A DNA stretch of 64,000 nt from Candidatus Uhrbacteria bacterium (GCA_023246355.1 JAHFIQ010000001.1:81887-145886); one strand, 5' to 3'; numbered from the stretch's first letter, positions 1 to 52,073 are shown. Notes: generated by a model not told the origin, from the sequence alone. A program made the numbers and translations.

Positions 1-825
1 AAAAAGGCACAGGAGAGAATTCGCAACGCGGTCACCGGTCTCACGCTTCTGTTATGCGTCTATCTGATTTTGGCGTCTATCAATCCTCAGCTGGTGATCT
101 TCAAACCTCTGCGTGTGTTGAATGTCGAAGGTCTGGAACTGGAAAAAGGAATAAACAGCAACGAGGGATTAAGCAGCTCCTCCTCAAGTGGGGGATCTTC
201 ATCTTCTTCTTCCAGCGCGGCAAAGAGCACGTGTGAAACAATAAGCGAAACAGCAAAAGCAGAAGGAACCTGTGAAATAACTCAAGAGGTTATTTCTCCC
301 ATTGGGGAAGCGCCCGTTTGTGACAGCAACAGTCATTGGACAGATGAAACAGGCACCTTCAAAGACTACTCAGAAATCACGGAACTCGATTTTGCTGCAG
401 GATTCGGCGTGGCCATCATGGCACCGATGGATGGAACGGTTTCCTACATTGTGGGGCAGGACACGAAATGTGGAAACTGGATTACCCTCACAGGTTCAGG
501 CGATGCCGCTGGCGCACAAATCAGCTTCTGTCATGTCGCAGACTTTGTGGACGACGCCGGAGAATACCACGATAATACCGCTGTCTCCCAAGGTGATACC
601 ATTGGTCATACAGGGGGTGTCTGGTGCAAGGGAGAAACGCCTCCCACGGACTGGGATCCGGATGGAAGTGCAACCTATGTTGACGGGACGGCTTGCACAG
701 ATCCGACGACCGCAGAAAACTGCAATTGCCAAACCGTTCTCCAAGCAGGGCTTTCAAAAAAAGCTCACCTGCACATGCAATGGCACCGCGGTGGAGACCT
801 GCTCGCTTGTTTGGAAGACTTCTAA
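1..825 (+). CDS. Membrane-anchored peptidase M23 (LytM-like) domain protein, 5' end outside window
   Basis: The ORF runs in frame from nt 1. A hydrophobic helix ends in the INPQLVIFKPL linker, followed by an S-rich stretch and an M23-like motif set (MAPMDGTVSY ... HTGGVW). It is paralogous to the next gene. Confidence 0.6.
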   Translation, partial: KKAQERIRNAVTGLTLLLCVYLILASINPQLVIFKPLRVLNVEGLELEKGINSNEGLSSSSSSGGSSSSSSSAAKSTCETISETAKAEGTCEITQEVISPIGEAPVCDSNSHWTDETGTFKDYSEITELDFAAGFGVAIMAPMDGTVSYIVGQDTKCGNWITLTGSGDAAGAQISFCHVADFVDDAGEYHDNTAVSQGDTIGHTGGVWCKGETPPTDWDPDGSATYVDGTACTDPTTAENCNCQTVLQAGLSKKAHLHMQWHRGGDLLACLEDF

Positions 826-827
826 CT

Positions 828-1847
828 ATGAGACGTAACACTGTCATCTTTCTGGCTCTCATACCGATGATGCTATTCATCGGACTTTTTGGGCATCCAG
901 TGCATGCAGCGAGCACTTCGTCTTCTTCCCTCATCAAACCCACCCTCGCGATCGATATCCCGACGGTGACGTTTAGTGATGGGGAGATCGACGGCGATAC
1001 GATCAAAATCAATTACCTGGGCGACTACATTGCCGGTGTGTACAAGTGGCTGCTAGGCTCTGCGACCTTGATCGCGATCGTCATGCTCATGATCGGCGGG
1101 CTGCAGTACACCATCTTTCAAGAAGACAAGGCAAAGACCCGGATCAAAAATGCCGTTACGGGACTCGTGCTTCTGCTTTCCACGTACTTGATTCTTGCCA
1201 CGATCAATCCACAACTTGTTATTTTTAAACCACTCAGTATCCAAAACATTCCTGAGGTCCCCTTGGAAAACCTTGAAGTAGAATTCAGTAGCGACACGAC
1301 GACGAGCACCTGTACAGGAAGTGACTGCGTAGGGGTCTCTCACTATCAAGACTGTATGATCGAACAATACGGTGGAAGTCCAGGTGCTGTCCGGGCGCAA
1401 CTCGTGCCAGTTACCGTTGACTACGCCGGGCACACCGGAACCTACTACGTCCATCAAAAAGTACAGGCGAAATTTCAAGCGGTGTTCGATGCTATTGCTG
1501 CTTCAGGGACGACCTATGATATTACAAAAAGTATAGGAATCTTTAATTGGCGCGCCGTAACAGCTAAGCCGAAATACTTAAGCAACCACTCATGGGCAAC
1601 GGGAATCGACATTAACCCTGATACAAATCCCTATTGTTCAGCAGAATGTTTCGATAGTGACGCTAGCACGAAATGTTTCTGCGTTGGTGCAAATTGTCAG
1701 ACAGACTGCCCAGCTGGAAAATACGACCTACCCAAAAAAGAAGTCATCGATATTTTTATCAGTAATGGGTTTGACTGGCTTGGAGATCGTGCGGAGGGAA
1801 AATTCCAGGACTACATGCATTTTGACGCACATACAGGCTGTGAATAA
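828..1847 (+). CDS. Exported two-helix (TrbC/VirB2 pilin-like topology) protein fused to a peptidase M15 (VanY/LAS-type) domain
   Basis: ATG at 828 follows the upstream stop by 3 nt. Signal peptide MRRNTVIFLALIPMMLFIGLFGHPVHAAS, two hydrophobic helices, and the same INPQLVIFKPL linker as the upstream gene. C-terminal SNHSWATGIDINP (SxHxxGxAxD) and DYMHFDAH motifs are typical of LAS metallopeptidases. Confidence 0.55.
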   Translation: MRRNTVIFLALIPMMLFIGLFGHPVHAASTSSSSLIKPTLAIDIPTVTFSDGEIDGDTIKINYLGDYIAGVYKWLLGSATLIAIVMLMIGGLQYTIFQEDKAKTRIKNAVTGLVLLLSTYLILATINPQLVIFKPLSIQNIPEVPLENLEVEFSSDTTTSTCTGSDCVGVSHYQDCMIEQYGGSPGAVRAQLVPVTVDYAGHTGTYYVHQKVQAKFQAVFDAIAASGTTYDITKSIGIFNWRAVTAKPKYLSNHSWATGIDINPDTNPYCSAECFDSDASTKCFCVGANCQTDCPAGKYDLPKKEVIDIFISNGFDWLGDRAEGKFQDYMHFDAHTGCE

Positions 1848-1850
1848 CCT

Positions 1851-3197
1851 ATGTTCATCTGTTCCCATTGCGACTCCCAATCCCTGAAGTGGTCTGGAAA
1901 ATGCGTGACCTGCGAAAAGTGGGGCACGCTTGTTGAGGAGAAGGCCGAGGTAGCCCCAGGCTTTAGCCAGGGTTCGGCCGCAAAAGCAAAGCCTGCAAAG
2001 AGTCAGGCTCTTTCTGATGTGGCGAAGCAAAACGAACATGATCGCTTGAGTACACAGGATCCTGAAGTGGATCGTGTCTTGGGTGGAGGAATTGTCGCGG
2101 GATCGGTTGTCTTGCTTTCGGGTGAACCAGGAATCGGCAAATCAACACTCGTGGCACAAATTGCCGGTAGTGTCCTTTCCACCTCTTCCACCTTATCCAC
2201 CTCATCTCCCTCCTCTGTCCTCTATATTTCTGGCGAAGAATCTGCAATGCAACTTGCTTCAAGATTTAAAAGATTATCTCTCACAGCCGACAGAGTCCGC
2301 GTGCTCGAACCTTTTCCTGTGGAGACACTGGTCGCGACCATCGAAAAGGAGAAGCCTTCCCTTGCTGTGATTGACTCGGTACAGACTCTCACCTCATCTC
2401 TCATCGACAGCACGGCTGGCTCACCGACCTTGGTGCGCTACGCCACTTCCCTGCTGCTTGATCTTGCCAAGCGCACCAACGTGTCAATTCTGCTGGTGGG
2501 ACAGGTCACCAAAGATGGATCGATCGCAGGGCCCAAGACCCTGGAACACTTGGTGGATGTGGTCGTGAATTTGGAAGGCGATCCTGTGCATAGCTATAGG
2601 ATGCTGCGCGCGGCCAAAAATCGATTCGGCGCAACAGACGAAATCGGCGTGTTTGAAATGACTGAGCAAGGACTCAAGGCTGTGACGAATCCTTCTGAAA
2701 GATTCTTAGCTGAGCGGTCAAGAACACCAGGATCTGTCATCGCCGCCACGGTCGAAGGTTCACGGGTGTTTCTCGTGGAAGTCCAGGCCCTGGTCGAACA
2801 AAGTTTCTACGGCACGCCTGTGCGCCGCGCCTCAGGCTTTGATCCCAACCGTTTACAGATGCTCGTGGCAATCCTGTCAAAACGTGCGGGCCTCAAACTC
2901 GGCGAGAAAGACGTGTATGTGAATGTGATCGGTGGAATGGACCTGCGAGAGCCGGCAGCTGACTTGGCGGTTTGTGCGGCGATCGTCAGCGCGTTTAAAA
3001 ATGTCACGGACGCGTCCTCAACGGTCTACCTGGGAGAAGTCGGCTTGGGTGGTGAAGTGCGCTCTGTGGGTCTTGTGGACAAGCGTCTCCAGGAAGCCGC
3101 ACGCCTTGGCATCACGGCCGCGGCAGTGCCGTCCAAGAGTAAAATAAAAATGAATTCCGTTGAGATTCGAAAAATAGAAAACGTAAAAGACCTCTGA
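1851..3197 (+). CDS. radA: DNA repair protein RadA/Sms
   Basis: N-terminal C4 zinc ribbon (CSHCDSQSLKWSGKCVTCEKWG), Walker A GEPGIGKST and a C-terminal Lon-like domain. It contains a 12-aa S/T-rich in-frame insert (STSSTLSTSSPS) encoded by a dispersed mini-repeat. Confidence 0.9.
   Translation: MFICSHCDSQSLKWSGKCVTCEKWGTLVEEKAEVAPGFSQGSAAKAKPAKSQALSDVAKQNEHDRLSTQDPEVDRVLGGGIVAGSVVLLSGEPGIGKSTLVAQIAGSVLSTSSTLSTSSPSSVLYISGEESAMQLASRFKRLSLTADRVRVLEPFPVETLVATIEKEKPSLAVIDSVQTLTSSLIDSTAGSPTLVRYATSLLLDLAKRTNVSILLVGQVTKDGSIAGPKTLEHLVDVVVNLEGDPVHSYRMLRAAKNRFGATDEIGVFEMTEQGLKAVTNPSERFLAERSRTPGSVIAATVEGSRVFLVEVQALVEQSFYGTPVRRASGFDPNRLQMLVAILSKRAGLKLGEKDVYVNVIGGMDLREPAADLAVCAAIVSAFKNVTDASSTVYLGEVGLGGEVRSVGLVDKRLQEAARLGITAAAVPSKSKIKMNSVEIRKIENVKDL
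2176..2212. repeat. GAGGTGGA-type mini-repeat inserted in-frame in radA
   Basis: ccacctcttccaccttatccacctcatctccctcc is the reverse complement of gatgaggtggataaggtggaagaggtgg. It encodes STSSTLSTSSPS. Confidence 0.6.
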
Positions 3198-5242
3198 TCA
3201 TTCCAGATGGACTTTTTCAAACGATGCTTGAATACGACTCTGAATCCGAGGATGACTCTGAAAACCCGGATCCTGTACCAAAAGGCCGCTCGCATAGTCG
3301 CGGGCTTTTTTCATAATCTGTGTGTCAGCAGCTGTGGCAAGCTGAAAATCTGGAAAGCCAGACTGGGCATTGCCAAACACATTGCCTGGACCACGCAGCT
3401 CGAGATCTTTTTCCGCGAGCAGAAATCCGTGATGGATCGTTTCAACAGCACGCAGTCGCGCCTCACTTGAATCAGAAAGTTGTTCAGGGAGAAGATAACA
3501 ATACGACTGGATGTCTGAACGCCCCACGCGACCACGCAACTGATGCAACTGCGCCAACCCAAATCGCTCTGCTCCCATAATCACCATTACGCTTGCATTT
3601 GGAATATCAACTCCCACCTCCACTACCGTCGTCGCGACAAGCACGTCGATCTTGCCATCACGAAATTTTTGGATGGCGTCTTCTTTTTCATGAGACGCTA
3701 AACGACCGTGCAGAATGCCAATCCGTGTATCGGACAAAGGACCCTTTTTGAGATCCCGAGCAACATCTGTCACAGACTTCGCCCCCATCTTGTCAGATGG
3801 GTCGATGAGCGGACACACGACAAACACTTGGCGACCTTCCTGAATTTGTTCACGCACATGACGCCACATGCCCTTTTGATGACTCTCAGGAACAAGCGCG
3901 GTTGCCACGGGTTTTCGACCGTGCGGCATCTCGTTTAGAATCGAAAGCTCGAGATCACCGTAGATCGTGAGCGCAAGAGAACGTGGAATCGGCGTGCGGT
4001 CATCGACAGCAAGTGAGGCGCCACGGCACCTTCTCGCTGCAACAGGGCATGTCGTTGTTCCACACCAAATCGATGCTGTTCATCAACGATCACGAGCGCT
4101 GGCTGGAGTTCAACGTAATCTTCCAAAATGGCATGGGTTCCAATCACACAGCGGATTCTACCAAGACGGATCGCATTTAGGAGTTCGTCTTTTGTCACGG
4201 TCTCTGATCCAATCCTCTGCTGCGTTCGTGTAAGAAGTCCAACCGGCTTTTTCAATAGTCGACAAAACGCTTCGTGCTGCTGAGAAGCCAGTATTTCGGT
4301 TGGTGCCAAGTACACGACCGTGTGACCAGCGTCCAGAACCGATGCACATGCCGCTGCAGCCACAACCGTCTTTCCAGAACCCACGTCTCCTTCCAGTAAT
4401 CGATTCATGGACGAAGTCCCTGCCATATCCTGAACGATTTCCCAGATGGCTTTTCGCTGTGCGTTGGTGAGTTGAAACGGCAATGCACTTACGAAGACAC
4501 GCAGGAATTCTTCGTTGATGGGAATCGAATGTACAGGCCGCTTTGCTCGCTCACTCCTCACGTGAGCAAACAGGAGTTGATGCAAAAAAAGCTCATCAAA
4601 CTTGAGACGCGCGACGCTGGCTTGAAGCACTTGTTGTGAAACAGGAAAGTGCACTCCACGCAAGGCATCACAGAGCGATGGATACGATTCGTGTTCAATC
4701 ACCTCTTCTGGTAACCACTCAGCCATTTCATCGGCACAACAGAGTGCCACGTTGATTGCCTCACGCAGTCGACGCATGGTGAGTGATCCTGTCAGTCCGT
4801 AGATCGGAACGATCCGACCGGTGTGAACCTGGGCACCTGATTTTTCGATGATTGGGTTTACGAGACTCAAACCGAATCGTCCATCCACTCGGCCAGCGAG
4901 AGAAACCGTGCTCCCCACAGGGAGCGTACGCTCAAGATATTCTTGGTTGAACCACACGACTTTCAACTCCCCTGTCGCATCCGCTATCACTCCTTCAACT
5001 AACTTCACCTTACGGTTTTTTGAAGGGCGGCTGGCCAGAGACTGAATCGTCCCAATAACCGTGACCATCTCACCCGACCGAACCTTCCCAGCTCCTGTGA
5101 CTTTGGAAAAGTCATCATAGCGAAACGGCAGGTACCACAAGAGATCTTTCACCGAAGAAACGCCCAGGTTCTTCAGATCTTGAACCGCCTTCCCGCCAAT
5201 TCCAGGAAGTTCAGAAACAGATGAGTTCAAGTGAATGGCCAT
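3198..5242 (-). pseudogene. recG: ATP-dependent DNA helicase RecG, interrupted by a single-nucleotide frameshift near 3994-3997 (two ORFs, 3935..5242 and 3198..3929)
   Basis: The 435-aa ORF carries GDVGSGKT and DEQHRFGV and ends LLSMTA. The RecG continuation TPIPRSLALTIYGDLELSILNEMPHGRKP is read in another frame and runs into the 243-aa ORF, which has the VLVATTVVEVGVDIP and QLRGRVGR helicase C motifs. Confidence 0.6.
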
Positions 5243-5932: not shown

Positions 5933-6020
5933 TGGCGGAGGGGGTGGGATTCGAACCCACGGTTCCTTGCGGAACGTCGCATTTCAAGTGCGATGGAATA
6001 AACCACTATCCGACCCCTCC
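5933..6020 (-). tRNA. tRNA-Ser (anticodon TGA), type II with long variable arm
   Basis: Acceptor GGAGGGG/CCCCTCC, anticodon stem TCGCA/TGCGA with loop CTTGAAA, long variable arm, T arm GTGGG TTCGAAT CCCAC, CCA encoded. Confidence 0.7.
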
Positions 6021-6032
6021 AAAAGAGTCGAA

Positions 6033-6127
6033 TGGCGGAGAGAGAGGGATTCGAACCCTCGCGCCGGGTATAAAACCGGCCTAACGGTTTAGCAAACCGT
6101 CCCCTTCAGCCTCTTGGGTACCTCTCC
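6033..6127 (-). tRNA. tRNA-Ser (anticodon GCT), type II, unusually long (~95 nt)
   Basis: Acceptor GGAGAGG/TCTCTCC, D arm CCC..GGG, anticodon stem ACGGT/ACCGT with loop TTGCTAA, long variable arm GGCCGG..CCCGGC, T loop TTCGAAT, CCA encoded. Confidence 0.65.
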
Positions 6128-6154: not shown

Positions 6155-6847
6155 TCATCCTTTGGCAATCACGAATCCCCACACGGTTTTGGCGCCGGCT
6201 TCTTTCAAAACTCGAGCCGCAGCGTCCATGGTCGTGCCGCTGGTAAACACGTCATCACAGAGCAAGAGATGATCTGGAATCTGGATGCCGTCCATCATCT
6301 TGAACGCATCGTCCATCTCGCCGACACGCCGCAGCTCATGACTCGTGCGAGCTTGAGGATTGGTTGAACGCACACGCCTGACAAACGTCTCGTGAGGAAT
6401 CCCAAATAACTCCCCTGCCCACTGAGCCACCAGATCTGCTTGGTCAAATCCTCGTTCTCGTCGACGCTTCTCATGCAAAGGAACACTCGTTGCATAAAAA
6501 GGCAAAACCGGTGGGGAGAGTCGCAGAGAGGCTTTCTTCAAACAGCCTTCCAGGATTCTCTCAACGCTCCTGTCCCCGTGGTACTTCCAATGTCCAAGCA
6601 GCTCGCGCACAACCGTATTTCCATACGGGGCAAAGGCCGTGAGTCCATCCAAGTAGACGTCCTCACAACAGGACGTACAGGTCCGATCACTTCCCAGTTC
6701 CCCGCAAAACGCACAAGACGCCAGTGCTGAGACTGGCGTCCACTCCTGTTCACACACCTCGCATAATAGTGAACCCTCGCGCTTACAGGAAACACAAAAT
6801 CGAGGAAACAACGTTTCTATTGCCAGACGGCCGAGTCGACTTTCCAT
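6155..6847 (-). CDS. comFC: ComF-family competence protein / phosphoribosyltransferase (ComFC)
   Basis: N-terminal Cys-rich zinc-finger region (FPRFCVSCKREGSLLCEVCEQ ... CAFCG) and a C-terminal PRTase motif LLCDDVFTSGTT. Its start overlaps the stop of the upstream gene, indicating an operon. Confidence 0.75.
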   Translation of the reverse strand: MESRLGRLAIETLFPRFCVSCKREGSLLCEVCEQEWTPVSALASCAFCGELGSDRTCTSCCEDVYLDGLTAFAPYGNTVVRELLGHWKYHGDRSVERILEGCLKKASLRLSPPVLPFYATSVPLHEKRRRERGFDQADLVAQWAGELFGIPHETFVRRVRSTNPQARTSHELRRVGEMDDAFKMMDGIQIPDHLLLCDDVFTSGTTMDAAARVLKEAGAKTVWGFVIAKG

Positions 6848-7401
6848 ACGCCGTCCTCCGTCACATAACTTAAAATGATGTCTTGATACTTCACGGTTGT
6901 GTTTTGCGGTGAGTCAATGGCTTCTTCCCGTTGCGTGGTCACGGTCACCTGCGCCGTTCCGGCTGTTTCATCTTTCTCATCCACGGTCACGGTCACGATC
7001 GATGTGGAAACGCCATAGTAGCCTTCTGGCATTTCACCTTCGTCAATCATCTTTTGTGTTTTGGCCGCAAACGCCTCACTCATGAGGGGTAAGACATCCA
7101 CCAGGTTGCCAAAATCTGCTTCATTGGAATAACTCCCGTAGCGGGTGACAAATGTTTTTGAAAGAGACGTGACGTCAGACGTTTGTGTCCGTACTTCGCG
7201 TTCTTGTTCTAGTTCAAGCTCTGACACGGTCGGCCGATCTGGCACCACTTGTTCTTCTTGTGTGACCTCTGCCACCTCTTCACCCTGTTTCACCTCGTCC
7301 ACCTTCCCAGAAAACAAGACATACAAAAGCCAGCCAAGCAGCAGCAGTAAAATAAGCAGAATTAAGACAACAATTGAAATACGTTTGCGTCGAGTCATCA
7401 T
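6817..7401 (-). CDS. Bitopic membrane protein, possible VirB8/PrgL-like (NTF2-like) T4SS component
   Basis: N-terminal TM helix (ISIVVLILLILLLLLGWLLYVLF), acidic linker, and a ~110-aa C-terminal domain ending WKVDSAVWQ. Its start overlaps the VirB4 stop (ATGA). The VirB8 assignment rests on position and topology only. Confidence 0.4.
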   Translation of the reverse strand: MMTRRKRISIVVLILLILLLLLGWLLYVLFSGKVDEVKQGEEVAEVTQEEQVVPDRPTVSELELEQEREVRTQTSDVTSLSKTFVTRYGSYSNEADFGNLVDVLPLMSEAFAAKTQKMIDEGEMPEGYYGVSTSIVTVTVDEKDETAGTAQVTVTTQREEAIDSPQNTTVKYQDIILSYVTEDGVWKVDSAVWQ

Positions 7402-9506
7402 ACTTTGAGAGAGTCACGGATTTTATCGGCTTGTTCTTTTCCCGCGTTCTCCGTGGACAGCAAGGCGGCAGCGGCATCCTGTGCAGCCTTCTCCTGCTCA
7501 GCAATCTCCTGAGCCTCCTTGGCATCTTCATCCAAATCCATGACGTCTTCTTTTGCTTGTGCGGCCTGTGCAGCTTGGGATTCTTTCTGCTGTACTTCCT
7601 GAACTTTTTTCTGTTCATCAGCGATGTCTTGCTTTGCCTTTTCTTGTTTGAGCAATTGCTGCGGGTTGGTTGTCACAATCTGGTCCTCAACATAGGAGGC
7701 AACCACTTTGATGGCCGCATGCTTATTTCCTGCAAAGAAAATCCCCTCTCCCACTCCAGACTCAAGCAACAGATATTTTTCTCCATCGGTGAGGTGAAAC
7801 GTTTTTTGAATGTTGTCCACGGCTGAGGCTGCTTGTTTGAGAAGAACTTGCATGGCAGAGTTGGTCACAATCGCCTGGCCATAGGCCGAGCGCAAAAAGT
7901 CGTTCACGTCCTGGGTGATGGTGGTGACGCCAAGGAAATATTTTCTCGCACGCTTCACCAAGGCGAAAATAAACTTCGCCGAGTCCTCATTTTGCATGAG
8001 CCACCACGCTTCATCCACCACCAAAATACGCTTGCGGCGCACTGAGCGCACCACGTTCCAGATGTAATTGACGATGTTGTAAATGGCCACAGGTCGCAGT
8101 TCGTCCTCGAGGTCTCTGACGGAAAAAACGACTAATTGATTTTTCATCTCCACGTTGGTGGTGGAATTGAGCAGTCCCGCAAAGGTGCCTTCCGTATATT
8201 TCTGCAAACGCGCCATGAGATTGGACGAGCCTTCCATGCCGTCAAGCACGTCTTCAAAATCTGTGAGCGTAGGCGGTTCGACCGCGGAGAGATCGGTGAG
8301 ATCAGGCGTGATGTCTTTTTTCGCGTAGGTTTCAATGAGGGCTCGATCAAGCAGAGAGTCTTCCTCCGGGGTAAACCCAAGTTTGCCGCCCTCTCCAATG
8401 GGCTGACCAATCATGATACGCAACAGACCTTTGAGTGTGATCACGGCTGAGCGAATAATATCTTCGACTTTTGTTCCCTCACCGATCGCGCGAGGCAGGT
8501 CAAAGGGATTCACGCGAGCCTCGGAGGCCAGAGACACATTGATAAACGTGCCGCCCACCGCGTCAGACAAATCTTTATATTCGTATTCCGGATCTATCAC
8601 AATCACATCCACGCCCATCATGAGGGAGCGAATAATCTCAAGCTTCACGGTGTAGGACTTTCCTGCACCTGAGGTGGCAAACACGACCGCATTGGCATTT
8701 TGCAAACTAAAACGATCGAACAAAATAAGCGAGTTGTTGTGGCGGTTGATGCCGTAGAGGATGCCGTTATCGCTGGTGAGATCAGAGGAAATGAACGGGA
8801 AAGACGCGGCGATAGGACTGGTGTTCATGTTGTAGCTGATGACCAGCTCGTCGTTGCCAAGAGGAACTGTTGAATTGAACCCTTGTTCTGCCTGATAAAA
8901 ACCAGACTTTGTATAAATGAGTTTGCTTCCAAACAAGGATTCCACCTCCCCGGTAAATTTTTCCAGCTCTTCTGGAGACTTGGCGTAAATCGTCACGTAG
9001 AACGAAAACTGAAAGAAATGTTCAATGCCTTGGGTGAGGGCGTCACGCAGAGATTCAATATCGCGCAGAGCGGTTTCGGCAATCGGATCACGTGGCGCGC
9101 CTTTTTCCGCATCACCCAAAATTTTGGCTTCAAATACTCCTACCTTTTTTTGCAACTGCTTCAAAATAATGTTCGCCTTGAGCGGATAAAAGAACATGGC
9201 CACGTCAAACGTTTTGTTGAGATTGATGAGTGGCGAAGACCATCCCAAACCGATGTGGCGCGGGTAGGTGATGATAAACAATGTTCTGGCGTAGACCCCA
9301 GAGAGCATCAAGTACGTTGGCTTCACTTCAAATGATGCCGGCGCGATGATCTGCCTCACCGTGACCACACCACGCCGATACACCCGCTCTTCTTCCAGAA
9401 CGATCTTTTCCTCTGTGACGCGTTTCACCTCCGCCTTCACCTCCTTCACCTTTTCAGGCGGTGGCGCTGGCATCGCGGCTTTAATTTTTCCAATATCAAT
9501 GGGCAT
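7398..9506 (-). CDS. virB4: VirB4/TraC/PrgJ-like type IV secretion ATPase
   Basis: Walker A FATSGAGKSYT, Walker B/DEAW motif ILVVDEAWWLM and a TTITQDVNDF motif. The N-terminal region resembles Gram-positive-type VirB4 (FIITYPRHIGLGW). Confidence 0.8.
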   Translation of the reverse strand: MPIDIGKIKAAMPAPPPEKVKEVKAEVKRVTEEKIVLEEERVYRRGVVTVRQIIAPASFEVKPTYLMLSGVYARTLFIITYPRHIGLGWSSPLINLNKTFDVAMFFYPLKANIILKQLQKKVGVFEAKILGDAEKGAPRDPIAETALRDIESLRDALTQGIEHFFQFSFYVTIYAKSPEELEKFTGEVESLFGSKLIYTKSGFYQAEQGFNSTVPLGNDELVISYNMNTSPIAASFPFISSDLTSDNGILYGINRHNNSLILFDRFSLQNANAVVFATSGAGKSYTVKLEIIRSLMMGVDVIVIDPEYEYKDLSDAVGGTFINVSLASEARVNPFDLPRAIGEGTKVEDIIRSAVITLKGLLRIMIGQPIGEGGKLGFTPEEDSLLDRALIETYAKKDITPDLTDLSAVEPPTLTDFEDVLDGMEGSSNLMARLQKYTEGTFAGLLNSTTNVEMKNQLVVFSVRDLEDELRPVAIYNIVNYIWNVVRSVRRKRILVVDEAWWLMQNEDSAKFIFALVKRARKYFLGVTTITQDVNDFLRSAYGQAIVTNSAMQVLLKQAASAVDNIQKTFHLTDGEKYLLLESGVGEGIFFAGNKHAAIKVVASYVEDQIVTTNPQQLLKQEKAKQDIADEQKKVQEVQQKESQAAQAAQAKEDVMDLDEDAKEAQEIAEQEKAAQDAAAALLSTENAGKEQADKIRDSLKV

Positions 9507-9588
9507 AGAATAGGTGGATCAGGGAGACAAGGTGGAACAAGTGGTCGGAATCCGGAACCACCTAGTCTCCCTTGTCTACCTTTCTACC

Positions 9589-10293
9589 TTACATTTTTAC
9601 ATCGTCCACGTGCGTCATATCTTCTGATTGAACTTGGGTGATGTCATTCAACTTTTCTGTTTCCTGCAAATCGGGATTGTAGACATTGTAGTAGAGCTCA
9701 ATGAGACTCTGGGTATCCAACCGTGCGGAAGAAAGCCCCATGCTATTCAACTGTCCTTGAAGAATTTCCACGCGTCTCCCGAGCTGTTCCACTCTCTCCG
9801 TCAGTTGTTTCTTGCTCAATTTGGCAGCCGCGGCTGGTGAGAGCGACTCGGACAGTCGTGTCCAAAAATTTTTCTTTTTGTTCGTGAGAGGATCGTAGGG
9901 CAACACGACGTAGAACAGTTTTTGCATGATTTGACCCAGCTCAACCAGTTCAGTGACAAAAGCGCGGTAATCTGCAATCTGGGCACGCAACAGATCGTTC
10001 TCAATCTTGCGTTCCTGCTCACGGAGCCTGGCCATGTACGCATCAATGTTCATGCGACGCGACTGAATCACGATCTGAACTGGATACTCGAGTGAATTCA
10101 AAAACGTCATGTAGGCCTGAATGATCGCCTCCTGCTCTTCCCCAGACTTGAGCGCAAAGTTAATGCTCGACACCAACAACACGGCACGAACCGTCCCATC
10201 TTTGAGCAACACCAAGTCATCTCGAATCTCAGCAATATCGAGATACTTCTCGGTTGCCGGACCTGGTTTTGATTTGGCGAGTTTTGTTGCCAT
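9589..10293 (-). CDS. T4SS-associated hypothetical protein; possibly a separately encoded VirB4 N-terminal-like domain
   Basis: ATG at 10293 (MATKLAKSK...). The motif DIAEIRDDLVLLKDGTVRAVLLVSSINFALKSGEEQEAIIQAYMTFLNSL resembles the start of VirB4/CagE N-domains. The gene sits immediately upstream of virB4. Confidence 0.4.
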   Translation of the reverse strand: MATKLAKSKPGPATEKYLDIAEIRDDLVLLKDGTVRAVLLVSSINFALKSGEEQEAIIQAYMTFLNSLEYPVQIVIQSRRMNIDAYMARLREQERKIENDLLRAQIADYRAFVTELVELGQIMQKLFYVVLPYDPLTNKKKNFWTRLSESLSPAAAAKLSKKQLTERVEQLGRRVEILQGQLNSMGLSSARLDTQSLIELYYNVYNPDLQETEKLNDITQVQSEDMTHVDDVKM

Positions 10294-10401
10294 ACGAGTG
10301 TGAACGGGTGGCACGGTGTCTGACCCTGGCCGGCTAGCGCAGGCCACAGGCCGAGCACCGACAGGGTCTGCACCGTGACAGGACCCGTTCACGGCGATAC
10401 A

Positions 10402-10833
10402 TTATTCTTCAGGCTTATACACTCCCCCCGTATTCACCACTAAGGTTAATTCTTGCAATCGTGAAGTAGCGGTAAATTCTTTGCGCACAAAGTGCACGGG
10501 AGGCGGAGGGGTTTTCTGCGAGATCAATTCTTTGAGTTCTGAATCTTGATAGACCTTCTGCCACACCCGCAGCTTTGGTTTTTTCAGTGTTTGCAACAGG
10601 TTGAGAAAAAAATAATGAAAGGCCTGGCCATTGATTCTCACAAACGCCACAATCCCAGCCAGACAGATAAGCGGAATGCCGAAGATCAGAAACTGAACAA
10701 AACTGAGGAGTTTGAACAGTGCAAAATTTGTAAGACCTGCAACCATGAGGATGATAAATTGCCGAGCCGTGACAGGCCCGAAAATTTTGTCCTCTGCATC
10801 GATAAATTGTGGCACCACGAATTGTTCGGGCAT
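10402..10833 (-). CDS. PrgI/VirB3-like small membrane protein
   Basis: 143 aa. N-terminal EDKIFGPVTARQF motif (PrgI-like) followed by two TM helices. It lies upstream of virB4, as in Gram-positive T4SS loci. Confidence 0.45.
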   Translation of the reverse strand: MPEQFVVPQFIDAEDKIFGPVTARQFIILMVAGLTNFALFKLLSFVQFLIFGIPLICLAGIVAFVRINGQAFHYFFLNLLQTLKKPKLRVWQKVYQDSELKELISQKTPPPPVHFVRKEFTATSRLQELTLVVNTGGVYKPEE

Positions 10834-10856
10834 ACCCTATTCTACCAGAACCTGAG

Positions 10857-12101
10857 TTAAAACCTGAGTTCTGCATTCAATTCCATCATCATCTTGAGCT
10901 CTTCGTCCGTCAGTGTCTCTTCTTTTGCTGCACGACGTTCGGAAAGCAGCTGCACCACCGGCATGCCCTTCAAAACCGCATCTCGCGTGACTCCCATGTA
11001 AAGTTTGTTAAGGGGCGACTCCCGCCAGGCTTTGATGCCTTCAATTTTTTTGTCATACCCCTGTTCTTCCAACAAGCCGACTTTGTCTTTTACTTTTGTG
11101 GCCGCCTGCTTTGGATCAGATGAAAGCCGACGGAAATCTAGAAGACTCAACATCCGCAATTCTTCCACCGGCCCGGTCAGCCGTTTTTCAAAGGCAATCT
11201 CTTGCATGGATGCCTGGGCCTGTACGCGAGGACGTTTGGGAACAGCGGGAACCTTGCTCTGCTCAATGGCGTTGCGAACCTGACCTGTGAGCTGCTCATA
11301 GCGCTTGGCGAGTTGAGCTTCTTCTTGTTTTGCCACGTCTTGTTTTTCAATGACCTTTTTTTGTCGAGCCTCTTTTGCTGCGCCCTTTTCTTGTTCCTGT
11401 TTGACCATGGAGGCTTCCTGATAGCGTGTCACTTCCCCCTCGATCATCGAGAGCATGTCAGCAAGCCGTCGTCCTGTGACCCCCAGTCCTCCGGCATCCA
11501 CGGATCGCTCGAGCTGTGAACGTGTCTGTTCGGCGGTTCTGACCTCGCGCACGCGAGACTCGACGAGCTTGCCACATCTGTCTTTCAAAAGAACATCTGA
11601 AAATTGAAACGCGGGGTTTTCGCAAATCGTTTTCACAATGCTCTCAACATCAACAGGCGCGGCAGAGGTGAGAACAGCAGCGTGTTTTTCTTTGATCGCT
11701 GCAAGATCTTGTTCATCTTGAGCGTGATCGTCTTGTTGTACAACCGCGCCCAAGGGTTTGGTCCCTGAGTCGGATGGGATTAATGGGACGGATGAGGCGG
11801 CCGGTTTTCCAATCTTTCCAGCAAGCAAAATCGAAACGATTTCATCCAACAAGGTCATGGCCTTCATCCGCTCGAGTCCCAAAAGCTTCTTGATGGTCTC
11901 GATCAGTTCTTCTTCTGTCCTGGACCCTTCACACAATTCGATCACATCGGAGTGGAGTTTGGATACTTCATCCTCTCCCCCGCCGGCTTCTGTCACCAAC
12001 CGCTCGAGTCCATCAAAAACCTCCGGGCTCCACAAATACGCGCGAGCTTCTTGAGACAATTCTTTTTTTTGTACGGTCGTAGTGCTTGTCATGAAGTTCA
12101 C
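10857..12101 (-). CDS. Hypothetical coiled-coil protein within the T4SS-like operon
   Basis: 414 aa, no TM, K/E/Q-rich coiled-coil segments. Its start overlaps the stop of the VirB6-like gene. Confidence 0.5.
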   Translation of the reverse strand: MNFMTSTTTVQKKELSQEARAYLWSPEVFDGLERLVTEAGGGEDEVSKLHSDVIELCEGSRTEEELIETIKKLLGLERMKAMTLLDEIVSILLAGKIGKPAASSVPLIPSDSGTKPLGAVVQQDDHAQDEQDLAAIKEKHAAVLTSAAPVDVESIVKTICENPAFQFSDVLLKDRCGKLVESRVREVRTAEQTRSQLERSVDAGGLGVTGRRLADMLSMIEGEVTRYQEASMVKQEQEKGAAKEARQKKVIEKQDVAKQEEAQLAKRYEQLTGQVRNAIEQSKVPAVPKRPRVQAQASMQEIAFEKRLTGPVEELRMLSLLDFRRLSSDPKQAATKVKDKVGLLEEQGYDKKIEGIKAWRESPLNKLYMGVTRDAVLKGMPVVQLLSERRAAKEETLTDEELKMMMELNAELRF

Positions 12102-14830
12102 GTAGTTCTAGCCTTCTTCTCCTCTTCTCTTTTTTTCAAGTACGCCCGCATCGCGTTCAACTGCGCTTCTACTTTTGCAAACTCCTTGCCTTCATCGGTG
12201 GCTGGATCAACCACAGGATTTACTTTTTCTGCTTCCTTCTTCGTGATTCTATTCAAAATGTTCACGACCGTGGAAGCCTTGTCGACATTCTCGGGTTTAG
12301 CCGCTTCCTTGGCTGCATCAGCCTCTGCTCTGGCCGCAGCTTTATCTTGAGGGCGATTCATGGGATCAGCCGCAGCGCGCTGTGCTGTTTGTTCAGCTCG
12401 ATCTGCGGTCGCTTGTAATTGTGCGGCCACCTGTGACCTTGCCGCTGCAAGATCACGAGCAAGCTGATCCAACTCCTGCGTGACCTTTTCACGGGCTGGT
12501 TCCAATCTTGATTTCTGTTCTGTTTCAACCCTGCCGACATCTCGCTGAACGGCCTCATCCACACCGCGAGTAACACGATTCATGTGTTGTGCTGAACTTG
12601 AACCTGGTTTCATGGCACCAACGTTCTGAGCGGTTTCACGCATGACCGTCACAATTTTCATCCGCTCACTGGGATCCGTAGCTCCATGAAACTTGGCTCC
12701 AAGATTGCTCATGAGCGTCCTGGCACGATTTTCGTCGCCGGCTCGCATCGCCGCCTCTATGGCTTTTCTGATTCCATCAGCGGTTCCTTTCTCACCAAGG
12801 GTCGTCACATTCACACGAGCCAACTCTGCATCATTCATGCGCTCATATTTTTCTCCTTCACCGCTGGTAAGCGCATTCTTCTTTGCGTCGCCCGCTCCGC
12901 CCAGACCCTTTGACACAGCATCATAAGCAGAAAGATACTCCCCATCGGCTCCACGCACATCCGACTTCACATTCCTCAACCGTTCCTGAATGGCTTTATC
13001 TTTCAGGGCATCATCATTCAGGCCTTTGACATCATCCCAAGTGCTGATAAGCCCTGCAGATTTCGTAATATCGGCATTGGATTTTTTGAAGTCGTTAATC
13101 TGATCCAACTTGGCCGCATCGTGTTTGTTATCGTTTGTGAACTCGTTGCCTTTCTGCGCCCAAGCTTTTTGCAATGTTCCATCAGCTCGCGCTTCTTTTT
13201 GCATGCGCTTGTCACCCATGGTTTCATCCAAAAGCGCCTTGTACTGCGCGTCTTCTTTTGCAGAAAGCGATCCGCCACGTGCAACTTGATTGGCGTAGGT
13301 TCGCATGAGGTTCAACTTTTCGTCGCGACCCTTGTTCTTCATGCCTTCCTTAGCAAGCTTCATGTCCTCAGTACGCGCAAGCCCAGCCTGCGCTTTGGAA
13401 CGAGCTTGAACCCCAACACCAAGGCGTTCGAGCGTTCTGAGTCCTGTCACCTTTCCCGTCTTTTGTACGATGCTGCCTGCACCTGTCTTCACAGATTCAC
13501 GAGCAGAAGCATACCCTCGAGCAACAGCCGATGAGCCTGGTAAGTAGCTCGCGACTGTCACAGCGGCAGAAGGAGCGCGATAGGCACCCTTGGCTCCCAA
13601 TCGCAATCCTGCGCCACCAGCTTTAAGACCAAGGCCACCGGCTCCGAGACCCAATGCAGCCGCCCCTTTTGCAAGCACACCACCCCTGGCTTTTTGTAGA
13701 GATTTCCCAAGCACGCCGCCGGACAAAGACGAACACAATTGTTGAGCGGCATCAAACCCGGCAAACAACATAGCCATGCCGATGAGAAAGCTCATGAAAT
13801 GTTGAGGTTCGAGTAACTTAGAAGCAAGGTCAGCAGAGTTCGCTGAACTTACATTAAAACCAGTCTCGGCCGCTATATTTCCTGCTCCAGCTACGGCAAG
13901 AGTCAGCCATAAGAAAAAAGTAAGAACAGGGCCTACACCAACCAAACACTTAAAACGATCCCACCATTTTGCATACGCGTCTGATTGAATGATGCCGCTT
14001 GAACCGCCTGCTCCACCAACAAACCAGGCGAGCGGAGAAATCACCACCAAAATCCACAGACCAATAATACGATAGATCAAAATCACTACCAACATGATGA
14101 GCGTTCCTAAGACCCACAGGGTGAGCAAGACAGACATGATGCCACCACCTAAGTAGTCAAAATTATCAATAGTTTTTCCTGCAGCCGTCCCAACGTCGTT
14201 GAGCGCCTGAATGTTTGTGCTCACCTGATACAATTGATTCAGTCCTAAAAGTTGAATAAAGTTTCCGGCCGCAATCTCACGCAGGGCATTGGCAAAGGTG
14301 AGCATGATCACCTGACCAAAATCGATCATGATGCCACAGAGGGTTTTTGAAAAGTTGATCACGATCGCAAAGGTGAGAAGTTTTGGCACCTGCTGTGACC
14401 ATTGAAACTTGGAGTGACCGAAGATGGTTCCAAACGCTATGATGATGAGCACGATCACAAAAAACATGTTGACTGTGTCGCGCATGATGGCCCAACCAGC
14501 ACTCACCACTTTGTTGGTCACAAAACTGTTATACGTCATGATGGGAACCATGAGGTCAATCATGAGTACAATACCTTGGGTCAAAATGCCTGCAATAGAA
14601 TAGGCAATATTGGCGAGCGTACCTGCAATAGTATCCAAGACGCTCAGTCCACCGAGAGCAGCCGCAGAGGCGCCGGGAGCTGCGGCCCGAGTCATCACCG
14701 GAATCAAAAAAGCAAAAAGAGACGAAACAAAAACACCTCCCACACGACCAAAACGATGCGGAGTCTTCCGCTTCGCACGATCGCTGAGCCAGTCTTTGAG
14801 CGCATGCAGACGCAGAAAAAGCTTCAGCAT
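12098..14830 (-). CDS. VirB6/TrbL/PrgH-like polytopic membrane protein with a long hydrophilic C-terminal domain
   Basis: 910 aa: about 8-10 TM helices in the N-terminal 400 aa, then a ~500-aa charged tail. Assignment is by topology and synteny (VirB6, VirB3, VirB4, VirB8 order) only. Confidence 0.5.
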   Translation of the reverse strand: MLKLFLRLHALKDWLSDRAKRKTPHRFGRVGGVFVSSLFAFLIPVMTRAAAPGASAAALGGLSVLDTIAGTLANIAYSIAGILTQGIVLMIDLMVPIMTYNSFVTNKVVSAGWAIMRDTVNMFFVIVLIIIAFGTIFGHSKFQWSQQVPKLLTFAIVINFSKTLCGIMIDFGQVIMLTFANALREIAAGNFIQLLGLNQLYQVSTNIQALNDVGTAAGKTIDNFDYLGGGIMSVLLTLWVLGTLIMLVVILIYRIIGLWILVVISPLAWFVGGAGGSSGIIQSDAYAKWWDRFKCLVGVGPVLTFFLWLTLAVAGAGNIAAETGFNVSSANSADLASKLLEPQHFMSFLIGMAMLFAGFDAAQQLCSSLSGGVLGKSLQKARGGVLAKGAAALGLGAGGLGLKAGGAGLRLGAKGAYRAPSAAVTVASYLPGSSAVARGYASARESVKTGAGSIVQKTGKVTGLRTLERLGVGVQARSKAQAGLARTEDMKLAKEGMKNKGRDEKLNLMRTYANQVARGGSLSAKEDAQYKALLDETMGDKRMQKEARADGTLQKAWAQKGNEFTNDNKHDAAKLDQINDFKKSNADITKSAGLISTWDDVKGLNDDALKDKAIQERLRNVKSDVRGADGEYLSAYDAVSKGLGGAGDAKKNALTSGEGEKYERMNDAELARVNVTTLGEKGTADGIRKAIEAAMRAGDENRARTLMSNLGAKFHGATDPSERMKIVTVMRETAQNVGAMKPGSSSAQHMNRVTRGVDEAVQRDVGRVETEQKSRLEPAREKVTQELDQLARDLAAARSQVAAQLQATADRAEQTAQRAAADPMNRPQDKAAARAEADAAKEAAKPENVDKASTVVNILNRITKKEAEKVNPVVDPATDEGKEFAKVEAQLNAMRAYLKKREEEKKARTT

Positions 14831-14850
14831 AATCTGGGGGAATTATAGCA

Positions 14851-14945: not shown

Positions 14946-14978
14946 ATATAAAACCGGACGGGTCGTACCGTCCGGTAG
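14944..14978 (-). terminator. Rho-independent terminator downstream of the M23 lipoprotein gene
   Basis: Perfect 8-bp stem ccggacgg/ccgtccgg, followed on the minus strand by a T-rich run. Confidence 0.5.
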
Positions 14979-15017: not shown

Positions 15018-17018
15018 TCACAATTGAGAATTGTCCGTGTAACCGTTGCCGATGCCCTGAAGTCCATCACTGGGATCCCAGGACACGTAGATGAGCCACT
15101 CCTCCCAGCTGGTGTCGTTGTCCATGAGCTCGCACAGGTCACTCCCACCGGAACAGAACCCATCGTTCTGCCACCAGTACCAGTTGCCCATGCTCGAATC
15201 CGGATCGTCACCGTCCGTGCCTTCAGCGTTGATGAGACTCATCTGCACTTCACAGTCGTAGGCAAACTCCGAGAAGTCGATCTCGTAGTAGCCACCACTG
15301 TTTGCGTAGACAAGGTCACCGCTTGAGAGCGTGCCGTTGTAGCATCCGCCATTGCCGTAGACGTAGGCGTCTTCACCGTCGATCGCGGAAGTGAGCCAGA
15401 GGTCGTCGGCCATGAGCAAGGTTTCGTAGAGTCCGTCTCCATCGCTGTCCACGATGCAGGCGTCTTCCCCATCGCAGTCCGTGTTGGTTTCAGGATCTTC
15501 GACTTCCTCTTCCTCATCGGTGTCTTCCTCATCAGCTTCTTCTTGGTCAGATGCGTCAGATGGGTCGGATGCGTCCGTATCCTCGTTGGATGCGTCCGCG
15601 TCATCACCATCTTCATCCTCGTCTTCATCCGACGTCGAGATCTCCTCGTCCTCGCCGTCCGATGAACCGCCGGTGCTGCCGCCACTGACCAGATCCAGTC
15701 CGCCGCCACAGGTCGCGACTGCATCCTCGTCCAAGCACCACTGATCTGCCGCGCAACTCCCGACCGTATCGAGTTCGCCCACGGTGCCGTCTGCCACCGT
15801 GATGATGTTGCGACTCAGATACCCCATCATGAGGTACATGTCCCAACTCACGATGGGCAGTGCGACTCCGCCGGAAACTTCCCACACGTCCGAGGCATCC
15901 TCTTCTTTGACGAGCGTCCCGTCGCGCAGCCCAACGTAGGAACTGCTCGGCGGCCAGGTTTCCATGTAGTCGCTGGAATCCGAGTACGTATCCGGATAGT
16001 TGTCCGTCCCGTAATCGAGTCCCCAGGACTCCATCACCGCCTCCCAGCCGATCTCGCGCACGCGGGCGCGATAGCGATTGGGGTCCGTGCTGGTTCCCAC
16101 GAACAGCCAGAGCTGCTCTTCGGTATCAAACGCGGCCTGCACCCAGCCAGTCTGCGTGATGTCGTCGCCCTCGCCCAGGCAGTCGAGTTCCTCGTCGGAG
16201 ATGATGACGACTTCCTCAAAGTCCCAGTTGTGACCCCAGAAGACGTCCTCGTTCTCGATCCACCTGGCCGCACCATCTTCCAGGACGTAGACGCGGGCAT
16301 TGTCACCGGTCTTCACGAGCGTCCCATCCGGATGCCAGAGCGGTACCGAAAGCTGGCTCTCGTAGAAGTCCCCGTCATGCGGATCACCTTCACTGGCGAT
16401 CCCGCAGACGAAGTCCTCCGAGTCGATCATCTGGGCCTCCCCGCGATCGCTCGCATTGGCTGCCCAGTACAGCGTGGGAATCGACACGCCGTTTCCGGCA
16501 TCCTCGCTGGCATCACCTTCATGAAGCCCGATGTGGATGTGGTCGCCGCTTGAGGCGCCCGTGTTTCCCTCGTACCCGATCAGCTCTCCCTGTCCGACCT
16601 CGTCCCCATCGCCGACAAAGATGTCGGAGAAGTGGCCCAGCACGATGTAGGTGCCATCACCCAGATCGATGTTGACGTGGTAGCCGAAGCCAGAGGTGGC
16701 ATCGAGATGCACGTAGGCCGTGCCCGAGATGGGCGCGTAGACTTCCTCGTCTGCGTAGTTGTTCGTATCCAGATCGATGTCGTACTCGGTGGACGTCTTC
16801 GAGTGGCTGTGAGAGCCGTGGGCTCCCTGCGTACACATGGTCTCGTGACCAGATTCCAGAGGAAGCTGGAGCGCTCCCTCACCTCCCCCTTGATCGGAGG
16901 AACCATTCGTCTCACGGGACACATCGAAGGGCTCGCAGCCCGACATGACGATGATCGTCAAAGCGCTCACAATGAGCGTGCTCACAAACAGGTAGCTTGG
17001 CAAACGATGGAAAAACAT
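15018..17018 (-). CDS. Lipoprotein with peptidase M23 domain, long D/E/S-rich acidic linker and C-terminal domain
   Basis: Likely start MFFHRLPSYLFVSTLIVSALTIIVMSGC (lipobox). M23 motifs GYHVNIDLGDGTYIVLGHF and GNTGASSGDHIHIGLHEG. Acidic low-complexity stretch of about 80 aa. GC about 63%. Confidence 0.65.
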   Translation of the reverse strand: MFFHRLPSYLFVSTLIVSALTIIVMSGCEPFDVSRETNGSSDQGGGEGALQLPLESGHETMCTQGAHGSHSHSKTSTEYDIDLDTNNYADEEVYAPISGTAYVHLDATSGFGYHVNIDLGDGTYIVLGHFSDIFVGDGDEVGQGELIGYEGNTGASSGDHIHIGLHEGDASEDAGNGVSIPTLYWAANASDRGEAQMIDSEDFVCGIASEGDPHDGDFYESQLSVPLWHPDGTLVKTGDNARVYVLEDGAARWIENEDVFWGHNWDFEEVVIISDEELDCLGEGDDITQTGWVQAAFDTEEQLWLFVGTSTDPNRYRARVREIGWEAVMESWGLDYGTDNYPDTYSDSSDYMETWPPSSSYVGLRDGTLVKEEDASDVWEVSGGVALPIVSWDMYLMMGYLSRNIITVADGTVGELDTVGSCAADQWCLDEDAVATCGGGLDLVSGGSTGGSSDGEDEEISTSDEDEDEDGDDADASNEDTDASDPSDASDQEEADEEDTDEEEEVEDPETNTDCDGEDACIVDSDGDGLYETLLMADDLWLTSAIDGEDAYVYGNGGCYNGTLSSGDLVYANSGGYYEIDFSEFAYDCEVQMSLINAEGTDGDDPDSSMGNWYWWQNDGFCSGGSDLCELMDNDTSWEEWLIYVSWDPSDGLQGIGNGYTDNSQL

Positions 17019-51962: not shown

Positions 51963-52073
51963 AATGTTCAACAGTTTAGGGAAATATCCCCAAGTTGGCA
52001 ACCGACAGAGTTGACAAAAAGCCCATTTTTGATGAGGATGGGGTGTCGTTCATTACAACGACCGGAGGAATCT

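Follow-up and report, generated by a model that had tools for sequence, protein, structure and literature searches.

A non-conjugative type IV secretion operon ending in comFC in Candidatus Uhrbacteria, and its possible part in nucleic-acid import

Patescibacteria carry a near-universal type IV secretion system (T4SS); in Southlakia epibionticum, so far the sole species in culture for which this was tested, it is essential. A survey of 3,035 Patescibacteria genomes described a monophyletic VirB4 clade inside MPF_FATA, with TrsD, PrgI/VirB3, VirB6 and VirB2-like proteins widespread, VirB8 homologs almost confined to the class ABY1 (in which the survey placed Uhrbacteria), and relaxases in only 103 of the genomes (Quinonero-Coronel et al., 2025; PMC12102498). 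The same survey found comF, recG and radA to be common at the T4SS loci of ABY1 and proposed that these systems import DNA. Here we describe such a locus in a 64,000-nucleotide (nt) stretch of Candidatus Uhrbacteria bacterium (GCA_023246355.1 JAHFIQ010000001.1:81887-145886; the window, hereafter), in which an operon on the minus strand, at positions 6155-14830, encodes VirB6-like, VirB3, VirB4 and VirB8-like proteins and ends in comFC.

The functions assigned to related systems diverge. T4SSs that lack a type IV coupling protein (T4CP) are known in DNA uptake (ComB, Ced), in pilus formation or adhesion (Trw) and in two-step export. In S. epibionticum, a member of the Saccharimonadia, the T4SS genes are essential and ComEC, ComF and DprA are dispensable, deletion of comEC abolishes transformation, and the authors suggested that the T4SS exports proteins or has some other role (Wang et al., 2023; PMC10633639). 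A 2025 review held that the essentiality of the T4SS is not attributable to an interaction with ComEC.

A preliminary description of the window, made from the sequence alone, had noted the gene arrangement and offered an uptake or host-contact apparatus as a testable hypothesis; both the arrangement and the idea of DNA import had been published in 2025 (PMC12102498). Because that survey already reported the T4SS-comF-recG-radA neighbourhood in ABY1 together with the import proposal, the window does not open the import question. Its increments are a comF junction that is kept in 74 of 74 relatives and mostly overlapping, fold-level support for the VirB8-like and VirB6-like proteins, a conserved promoter of the leaderless type, and a radA operon with pilin-like hydrolases.

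The gene cluster and its comFC junction

All seven minus-strand open reading frames (ORFs) that had been claimed at 6155-14830 were found there, preceded by a promoter-like box and a hairpin. In order of transcription, with lengths in amino acids (aa), the features are:

14953..14976, minus strand: terminator-like hairpin with a 9-bp stem (7 G-C pairs) and a T-rich tail, 3' of the upstream M23 gene
14842..14850, minus strand: extended -10 box TGcTATAAT, 11 nt 5' of the ATG of the first gene
12098..14830, minus strand: extended VirB6-like protein, 910 aa, with a polytopic N-terminal domain and a hydrophilic C-terminal half
10857..12101, minus strand: soluble protein, 414 aa, with no transmembrane (TM) segment and no family match
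10402..10833, minus strand: PrgI/VirB3-like protein, 143 aa, with two TM helices (PF12666 PrgI at 36 bits, where the gathering score is 27)
9589..10296, minus strand: TrsD-like protein, corresponding to the N-terminal domain of VirB4 as a separate chain; 235 aa when counted from its ATG, with the ORF open to 10392
7398..9506, minus strand: VirB4 ATPase without N-terminal domain, 702 aa, matching the CD1110-family VirB4 profile NF045971
6817..7401, minus strand: VirB8-like bitopic protein, 194 aa, with an N-terminal TM helix, a linker and a C-terminal NTF2-like domain
6155..6847, minus strand: ComFC/ComF-family protein, 230 aa, the last cistron

The genes for the 910-aa and 414-aa proteins overlap by 4 nt, as do those for VirB4 and the 194-aa protein, and the gene for the 194-aa protein overlaps comF by 31 nt (6817-6847); the remaining gaps run from 23 to about 105 nt, with 23 nt between the 414-aa and 143-aa genes and 82 nt between TrsD and VirB4. 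The T4SS transcription unit is bounded at its 5' end by the hairpin, read from 14976 to 14953. No Shine-Dalgarno sequence precedes the first gene, and the pattern TGnTAnAnT recurs at an equal distance in 12 of the 15 relatives with a placeable start. Because the -10 box is kept at this distance, we take it to be part of a conserved promoter, and the arrangement suggests that the operon mRNA is leaderless or near-leaderless. The hairpin, the conserved extended -10 box, the overlapping stop and start codons and the spacing together fit one operon, in which a single promoter would drive all seven genes (VirB6-like, 414-aa, PrgI/VirB3, TrsD, VirB4, VirB8-like and ComFC), comF being the last.

We compared the locus with the 80 closest species-level loci that we retrieved, all of them from metagenome-assembled genomes (MAGs) of Uhrbacteria/Patescibacteria, the closest being Candidatus Uhrbacteria with VirB4 identities of 69-92%. 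The same order recurs in all 80: serS, M23, VirB6-like, 414-aa homolog, PrgI, TrsD, VirB4, VirB8-like and ComF. This recurrence led us to reject a chance arrangement of ORFs, and it answers for the synteny that the preliminary description had proposed to compare across relatives. Many of the species-representative MAGs (including L007, L015, L021 and L027; L numbers label the sequences retrieved) bear the title 'uncultured Gammaproteobacteria bacterium'. These titles are evidently mislabelled, as the MAGs carry the Uhrbacteria-type operon, with VirB4 identities of 70-92%.

The junction between the VirB8-like gene and comF is held more tightly than its surroundings. In every one of the 74 relatives with DNA beyond the VirB8-like gene, comF follows it directly (in the other six of the 80 loci the contig stops before that point); the two genes are spaced by -91 to +150 nt, the median being -17.5 nt, and overlap in 51 of the 74 loci. 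This junction persists even though ComF identity drops to 26-35% among the relatives and recG lies anywhere between 1.0 and 7.6 kb away from comF, so it is tighter than the surrounding synteny, which suggests that it is maintained by selection rather than by inertia. The earlier claim that comFC is the last cistron and is co-transcribed with the T4SS genes is thus borne out by the spacing, the overlaps, the promoter and the 74 relatives. Two metagenome contigs with an identical VirB4 (L004 and L005) diverge from the window right after comF, where L004 has a cupin/AraC-binding gene (13501-13872) and L005 a 396-aa gene on the reverse strand (9042-10232). The divergence could reflect strain-level rearrangement or assembly breaks at tRNA-Ser genes.

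The 230-aa product of the last gene matched the ComF family TIGR00201 (E 1.2e-20, 74.3 bits against a cut-off of 233.6) and GntX (PRK11595; E 2.2e-19, 69.9 bits against a cut-off of 304), and carried DZR_2 and Pribosyltran matches. It thereby has the architecture of ComFC, a four-cysteine zinc ribbon joined to a type I phosphoribosyltransferase (PRT) fold, and its cysteines (C18/C21/C29/C32) and its phosphoribosyl pyrophosphate (PRPP)-loop motif, D198-D199-V-x-T-x-G-x-T, are invariant in 31 ComF orthologs. A profile of these orthologs reached Helicobacter pylori ComF through the PRT motif only (E 0.0068), and a single-sequence search of the PDB with ComF returned designed-repeat artefacts only. 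Because the E-values lie near 1e-20, we assign the protein as a divergent member of the ComF/ComFC family rather than a non-member.

Subunits of the predicted translocon

VirB4, the motor, is divided between two genes. The 702-aa protein scored 332.4 bits against the CD1110-family VirB4 profile NF045971 (cut-off 325), covering profile positions 172-730, and matched P-loop_TraG (E 2.9e-28) and the VirB4 domain structure 4ag5 in the PDB (E 3e-43); Walker A (SGAGKS) and Walker B (ILVVDEAWW) motifs can be read intact from its translation. The gene before it, which the preliminary description had correctly listed as encoding a 235-aa protein and had left unassigned, encodes TrsD, the detached VirB4 N-terminal domain: it matches the TrsD/TraD profile NF041427 (E 1.4e-6, below the curated cut-off), positions 102-233 of the VirB4_plasma profile, positions 17-97 of CD1110 VirB4 and TraC_F_IV (E 1.9e-4), and has a precomputed PF26593 TraC-like annotation; its orthologs are mostly 225-245 aa long. 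Because the ATPase covers positions 172-730 and the preceding gene matches the VirB4 N-terminal positions, we conclude from these profile alignments that VirB4 is split, as in the staphylococcal Trs system. A split VirB4 also matches the wide distribution of TrsD in Patescibacteria (PMC12102498).

The VirB8-like protein is bitopic, with a TM helix at residues 8-26. Its AlphaFold2 (AF2) model (pLDDT 86) shows a long helix that leads into an NTF2-like domain, and its top Foldseek matches in the PDB were CagV (6iqt, E 7.6e-6), VirB8/TrwG of R388 (8rtd_Y) and PrgL (7aed), with further matches to TcpC (3ub1) and TraH (5aiw). At the sequence level, one homolog cluster of the protein matched PF04335 VirB8, the protein itself matched NTF2_YvbJ at 21 bits, under threshold, and an hhalign comparison of its profile with PrgL was not significant, a result that says little given that the template was a single sequence. 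The protein thus has the marks of the VirB8 family, being bitopic, NTF2-like in its model and encoded in a T4SS locus.

The first protein of the operon is VirB6-like by other kinds of evidence. Its N-terminal domain (about residues 60-370) is conserved and polytopic, with six separate hydrophobic stretches, and its C-terminal half (12098-13570) is a poorly conserved, hydrophilic tail of about 500 aa rich in Ala, Lys and Glu. Scans of the 910-aa protein against Pfam, NCBIfam and PHROG gave zero matches; PDB sequence-profile searches with the family alignments of the VirB6-like, VirB8-like and 414-aa proteins gave no meaningful match; and an hhalign comparison of the VirB6-like profile with PrgH of plasmid pCF10 was not significant, the template again being a single sequence, so that this says little. 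A profile of the TM domain alone retrieved 15,010 representatives of 50%-identity clusters (exhaustive HMMER, E <= 0.001), a very large family that goes unrecognised by Pfam, and the Pfam TrbL/VirB6 domain was present in 0 of 10 of the lowest-scoring HMMER matches listed. These searches gave no transitive sequence link to VirB6; the VirB6-like assignment rests on predicted fold, topology and position.

The 414-aa protein is a lineage-specific member of the T4SS operon without a family assignment. Only its C-terminal 110 aa or so are conserved, and its relatives range from 361 to 774 aa in length. It matched nothing in Pfam, NCBIfam or PHROG, an alignment of 31 orthologs brought no family or PDB match, and Pfam scans of the 31 orthologs one by one gave scattered noise only.

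We also looked for the genes that would make this a conjugation or competence locus, scanning with Pfam 39 translated ORFs, approximately all gene-like ORFs of at least 120 aa in the window. The reported absence of VirD4, relaxase and VirB11 from the window held up in these scans, and no relaxase, VirD4/T4CP or VirB11 was found in a region that begins 9.2 kb ahead of the window and reaches 49 kb beyond the operon; in particular, the gene table for the 9.2 kb beyond the window start has neither the relaxase nor the coupling protein that would have pointed to an ordinary conjugative element. No integrase domain was detected in the window or in the 9.2 kb before its start, where comEC, comEA and pilus genes were likewise not detected, and domain scans found no VirB7, VirB9 or VirB10 homologs among the window proteins. 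Overall, profile searches supported the VirB4, PrgI and ComF assignments of the preliminary description, and its VirB8-like and VirB6-like assignments gained support at the fold level, the latter without sequence-profile support. The locus is a non-conjugative T4SS inner-membrane core, comprising a VirB6-like protein, VirB3, a VirB8-like protein and, as its sole ATPase, VirB4 in its split form.

Flanking genes and chromosomal setting

The system extends beyond the seven genes. The preliminary description was right about the operon, but had left unlinked an M23 hydrolase upstream, recG downstream, and pilin-like/peptidase genes with radA on the opposite strand:

15018..17018, minus strand: membrane-anchored M23 peptidase, 666 aa as called (PF01551, 54.7 bits), with a TM segment; the ORF is open to 17132
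5933..6127, minus strand: two tRNA-Ser genes, beginning 27 nt past the comF stop on the comF strand
3198..5242, minus strand: recG, split by a frameshift into ORFs of 435 and 243 aa, 0.9 kb downstream of comF
1851..3197, plus strand: radA/sms (precomputed AAA_25, Lon_C and ChlI), 3 nt past the pilin-like/M15 gene and kept in relatives
828..1847, plus strand: 339-aa membrane protein with a VirB2/T4SS_pilin-like TM region and an M15_4 peptidase domain, directly upstream of radA
1..825, plus strand: 376-aa protein that starts outside the window and of which the window includes the C-terminal part; M23 domain and weak T4SS_pilin match

Of the 52 relatives whose sequence extends 4 kb or more upstream, 47 have the M23 gene ahead of the VirB6-like gene. 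Its product is a candidate VirB1-type wall hydrolase, encoded in a separate transcription unit. On the other side, comF is followed by the two tRNA-Ser genes, a small membrane protein and then recG. The recG frameshift lies near 3929-3960, within a conserved helicase motif, where one frame reads '...HLLSMTA' and then leaves frame. The split is called alike in three independent metagenome assemblies, and the relatives L009 and L011 have a single ORF of 712-740 aa; a pseudogene, a recoding site or an assembly error common to the three could each account for the split.

Converging on recG from the other strand is a run of four genes with 2-4 nt between them (dsbA, the 376-aa pilin-like/M23 gene, the 339-aa pilin-like/M15 gene and radA; 8215-12370 in L088), so that radA is co-operonic with two genes that fuse pilin-like and peptidoglycan-peptidase domains. 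The 339-aa protein has TM segments and scored 44 bits against PF13539 and 23.5 bits against PF18895 T4SS_pilin, under the gathering score of 26.6. For VirB2-like pilins near virB4 there are only such sub-threshold PF18895 matches, in the two peptidase fusions 5.5-8 kb away, and there is no pilin array. Beyond the window start, 3 kb from these genes, positions 4747-6885 of L088 encode a protein of 712 aa in which a PT-TG (polymorphic-toxin-associated) domain is weakly matched.

The wider setting is chromosomal. Housekeeping genes occur across the window (serS, groEL, yidC, nusA, argS, valS, prfA, ksgA and tsaC), the G+C content of the operon (0.50-0.51) is level with that of the neighbouring sequence, and the serS...recG/radA flanks recur across the 80 species. 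These flanks and this uniform composition speak for a chromosomal, vertically inherited locus, and we regard it as very probably a T4SS of the Patescibacteria clade, derived from monoderm MPF_FATA conjugation machinery, in a Candidatus Uhrbacteria host of class ABY1; comF, recG and radA all lie in the neighbourhood of virB4, as in an ABY1-type locus. We rejected a conjugative or integrative and conjugative element (ICE) on the same flanks in 80 species, the uniform G+C and the lack of a relaxase, T4CP or integrase in the region that starts 9 kb ahead of the window and ends 49 kb beyond the operon. The window sequence was matched by a groundwater-type metagenome contig of 175 kb. The window also encodes giant surface proteins, a kind of large protein typical of Patescibacteria; its giant ORFs, at 23075-32803 (minus strand; 3,242 aa, with a weak CBM_4_9 match) and at 58925-63904 (minus strand; 1,659 aa), have almost no domain annotation. 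At 51708-54407 on the plus strand lies the gene for an 899-aa protein with MopE-type metal-binding motifs and FG-GAP repeats; it coincides with a local G+C peak of 0.578 and a reversed GC skew, and lies on the strand opposite to most genes.

Possible functions and relation to known systems

The single most likely function, in our estimate with a probability of about 0.4, is the import of nucleic acid coupled to ComFC. We favour import because two envelope operons each end in a DNA-processing gene of the recipient side, comFC in one and radA in the other. As a hypothesis, DNA uptake rests on gene linkage and on the analogy with ComB, and it is in this spirit that we infer the direction of transport, the substrate and a contact between ComFC and the T4SS. 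The VirB6-like, VirB3 and VirB8-like proteins would form a translocon in the cytoplasmic membrane, powered by VirB4 alone as in ComB and Ced, which likewise have no T4CP. The apparatus would act where the cell touches its host, and incoming nucleic acid would be at least one of its substrates in this lineage. ComFC, made in fixed proportion from the common mRNA, would take over incoming single strands at the cytoplasmic face, and the DNA would then pass to the neighbouring RadA (and to RecG where this is intact) for recombination, or be degraded for nucleotides. RadA has a known part in transformation, the pneumococcal protein being a helicase that extends D-loops. Import of host DNA would explain both feeding and gene acquisition by nucleotide-auxotrophic epibionts, and would make this the first bacterial monoderm T4SS acting as an importer. 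A more specific form, in which the T4SS works without ComEC as an analogue of Ced ('reverse conjugation'), pulling DNA from the host cell and delivering single strands to the co-translated ComFC and then to RadA, would supply nucleotides and genes to a cell unable to make nucleotides; we think it unlikely.

Several observations weigh against import. The Southlakia T4SS does not depend on Com and cannot stand in for ComEC in transformation, and its essentiality beside a dispensable Com argues against Com as an obligatory partner of the T4SS. The ComF scores fall under the curated family cut-offs, and the VirB6 assignment comes from a medium-confidence model without sequence-profile support. The linkage of comF has been reported for class ABY1 only, and was examined here within Uhrbacteria. 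Membership in an operon can mean co-regulation alone, and the neighbourhood also keeps serS and tRNAs in order. Finally, recG is frameshifted in the window, and comEC, comEA, dprA, comFA and type IV pilus genes were not found there. With the Southlakia data against it and a linkage confined to ABY1, import is a hypothesis well short of established.

The same Southlakia data, with the protein export or other role suggested by their authors, speak for a quite different use of the machine, as a host-contact device (a pilus or adhesion structure like the Trw system of Bartonella, or a channel for protein or macromolecule transfer) that has no link to DNA and with which comFC is merely co-regulated during host attachment. 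The pilin-like genes nearby fit such a device, as does clade synteny, which preserves unrelated housekeeping neighbours as well. Against it, the T4CP normally needed for export from the cytoplasm to the outside was not found between 9 kb before the window and 49 kb past the operon, the comF junction is kept in all 74 loci, mostly with overlapping codons, where adjacent spacing is fluid, and radA, too, a gene of recombination, shares an operon with pilin-like envelope genes. We consider a host-contact device quite possible, if short of probable. A related doubt concerns the last protein itself, which might be no competence factor at all and instead a PRT-fold, zinc-ribbon helper of the T4SS, engaged for instance in nucleotide- or PRPP-linked chemistry or in assembly. 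The TIGR00201 and GntX scores under cut-off leave room for such a helper, as do the many PRTase families that match the C-terminal motif and the lack of de novo nucleotide synthesis in Patescibacteria. We nevertheless hold it to be decidedly improbable, given that a four-cysteine ribbon joined to a PRT domain is the architecture of ComFC, that ComF and GntX outscore all other family matches by a wide margin (E about 1e-20), and that the cysteines and PRPP-loop motif are invariant in the 31 orthologs.

Two further readings concern DNA export and conjugation. Export or donation of chromosomal DNA, as by the gonococcal GGI T4SS, would suit machinery of conjugative descent with DNA-processing genes beside it, but no relaxase or T4CP lies nearby and, in the systems known, ComFC and RadA act on the side of the recipient; we judge it very unlikely. 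To an ordinary conjugative element (an ICE or plasmid remnant), with relaxase, oriT and coupling protein encoded elsewhere, we give next to no credence. Its VirB4 of the CD1110/MPF_FATA family and a gene order that mirrors prgH-prgI-prgJ...prgL of pCF10 would fit such an element, but the same features on which we rejected a conjugative element above argue against one at present, as does the scarcity of relaxases in Patescibacteria (just 103 of 3,035 genomes; PMC12102498). On the tie between comFC and the T4SS, the window supplies sharper evidence: in all 74 Uhrbacteria species sampled comFC is the last cistron, mostly an overlapping one, against a drift in the spacing next to it; the constancy of this junction makes an interaction between ComFC and the T4SS a concrete target.

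Among described systems, the conjugative prototype of MPF_FATA, Prg/Pcf of Enterococcus faecalis plasmid pCF10, has in common with the window the VirB6-like PrgH, PrgI, the VirB4 PrgJ (NCBIfam CD1110), the VirB8-like PrgL and a nearby wall hydrolase, PrgK, which bears out the Gram-positive conjugative order claimed earlier for this locus (prgH-prgI-prgJ...prgL). Unlike the window, it has a T4CP (PcfC), a relaxase (PcfG), adhesins and a single-chain VirB4, and only the locus described here ends in comFC. Of the MPF_FATA subclasses, none but the Trs systems of the staphylococcal plasmids pGO1 and pSK41 has, as found here, a TrsD that is a protein of its own and homologous to the N-terminus of VirB4. 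The Trs systems belong to conjugative plasmids with relaxase and T4CP, have no comF and, by the account of the 2025 survey (PMC12102498), lack a recognisable VirB6.

Two DNA importers resemble the locus in part. ComB of H. pylori resembles it in having no VirD4 and VirB4 as sole ATPase, but belongs to a diderm and moves double-stranded DNA across the outer membrane, a role not needed in a monoderm, as Uhrbacteria are presumed to be, and the comB genes are not operonic with comFC. ComB carries the outer-membrane core subunits VirB7, VirB9 and VirB10; we did not find homologs of these in the window, and rejected membership in the ComB family. In H. pylori, ComB acts in two steps with ComEC (PMC12857230). 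Ced of the Sulfolobales works in a monoderm-type envelope with the VirB4/HerA-like CedB as sole motor and imports DNA from another cell, contact being made through type IV pili. Ced is archaeal, and the locus shares only generic P-loop similarity with it; we rejected membership in this family on scores of 39.9 bits for CedB (cut-off 700) and 21 bits for CedD and on the lack of a CedA match.

Closest are the Patescibacteria-clade T4SSs themselves (PMC12102498), including SEML1_0006-0019 of Southlakia (PMC10633639), with which the locus shares an MPF_FATA-type VirB4, TrsD beside VirB4, PrgI/VirB3, a VirB6-like protein, a chromosomal site, the absence of relaxase and T4CP beside virB4 and, as sub-threshold matches in the window, pilin-like genes. 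Saccharimonadia have a tandem array of VirB2 pilins beside virB4, unlike the window. Nothing essential sets the locus apart from the clade, and for the T4SSs of ABY1, VirB8 homologs and comF, recG and radA neighbours are reported exactly as found here. What the window adds to the picture of the clade is a VirB6 with a 500-aa hydrophilic tail, a lineage-specific 414-aa protein, comF as a terminal cistron of the overlapping type, and a radA that is co-operonic with pilin-like hydrolases.

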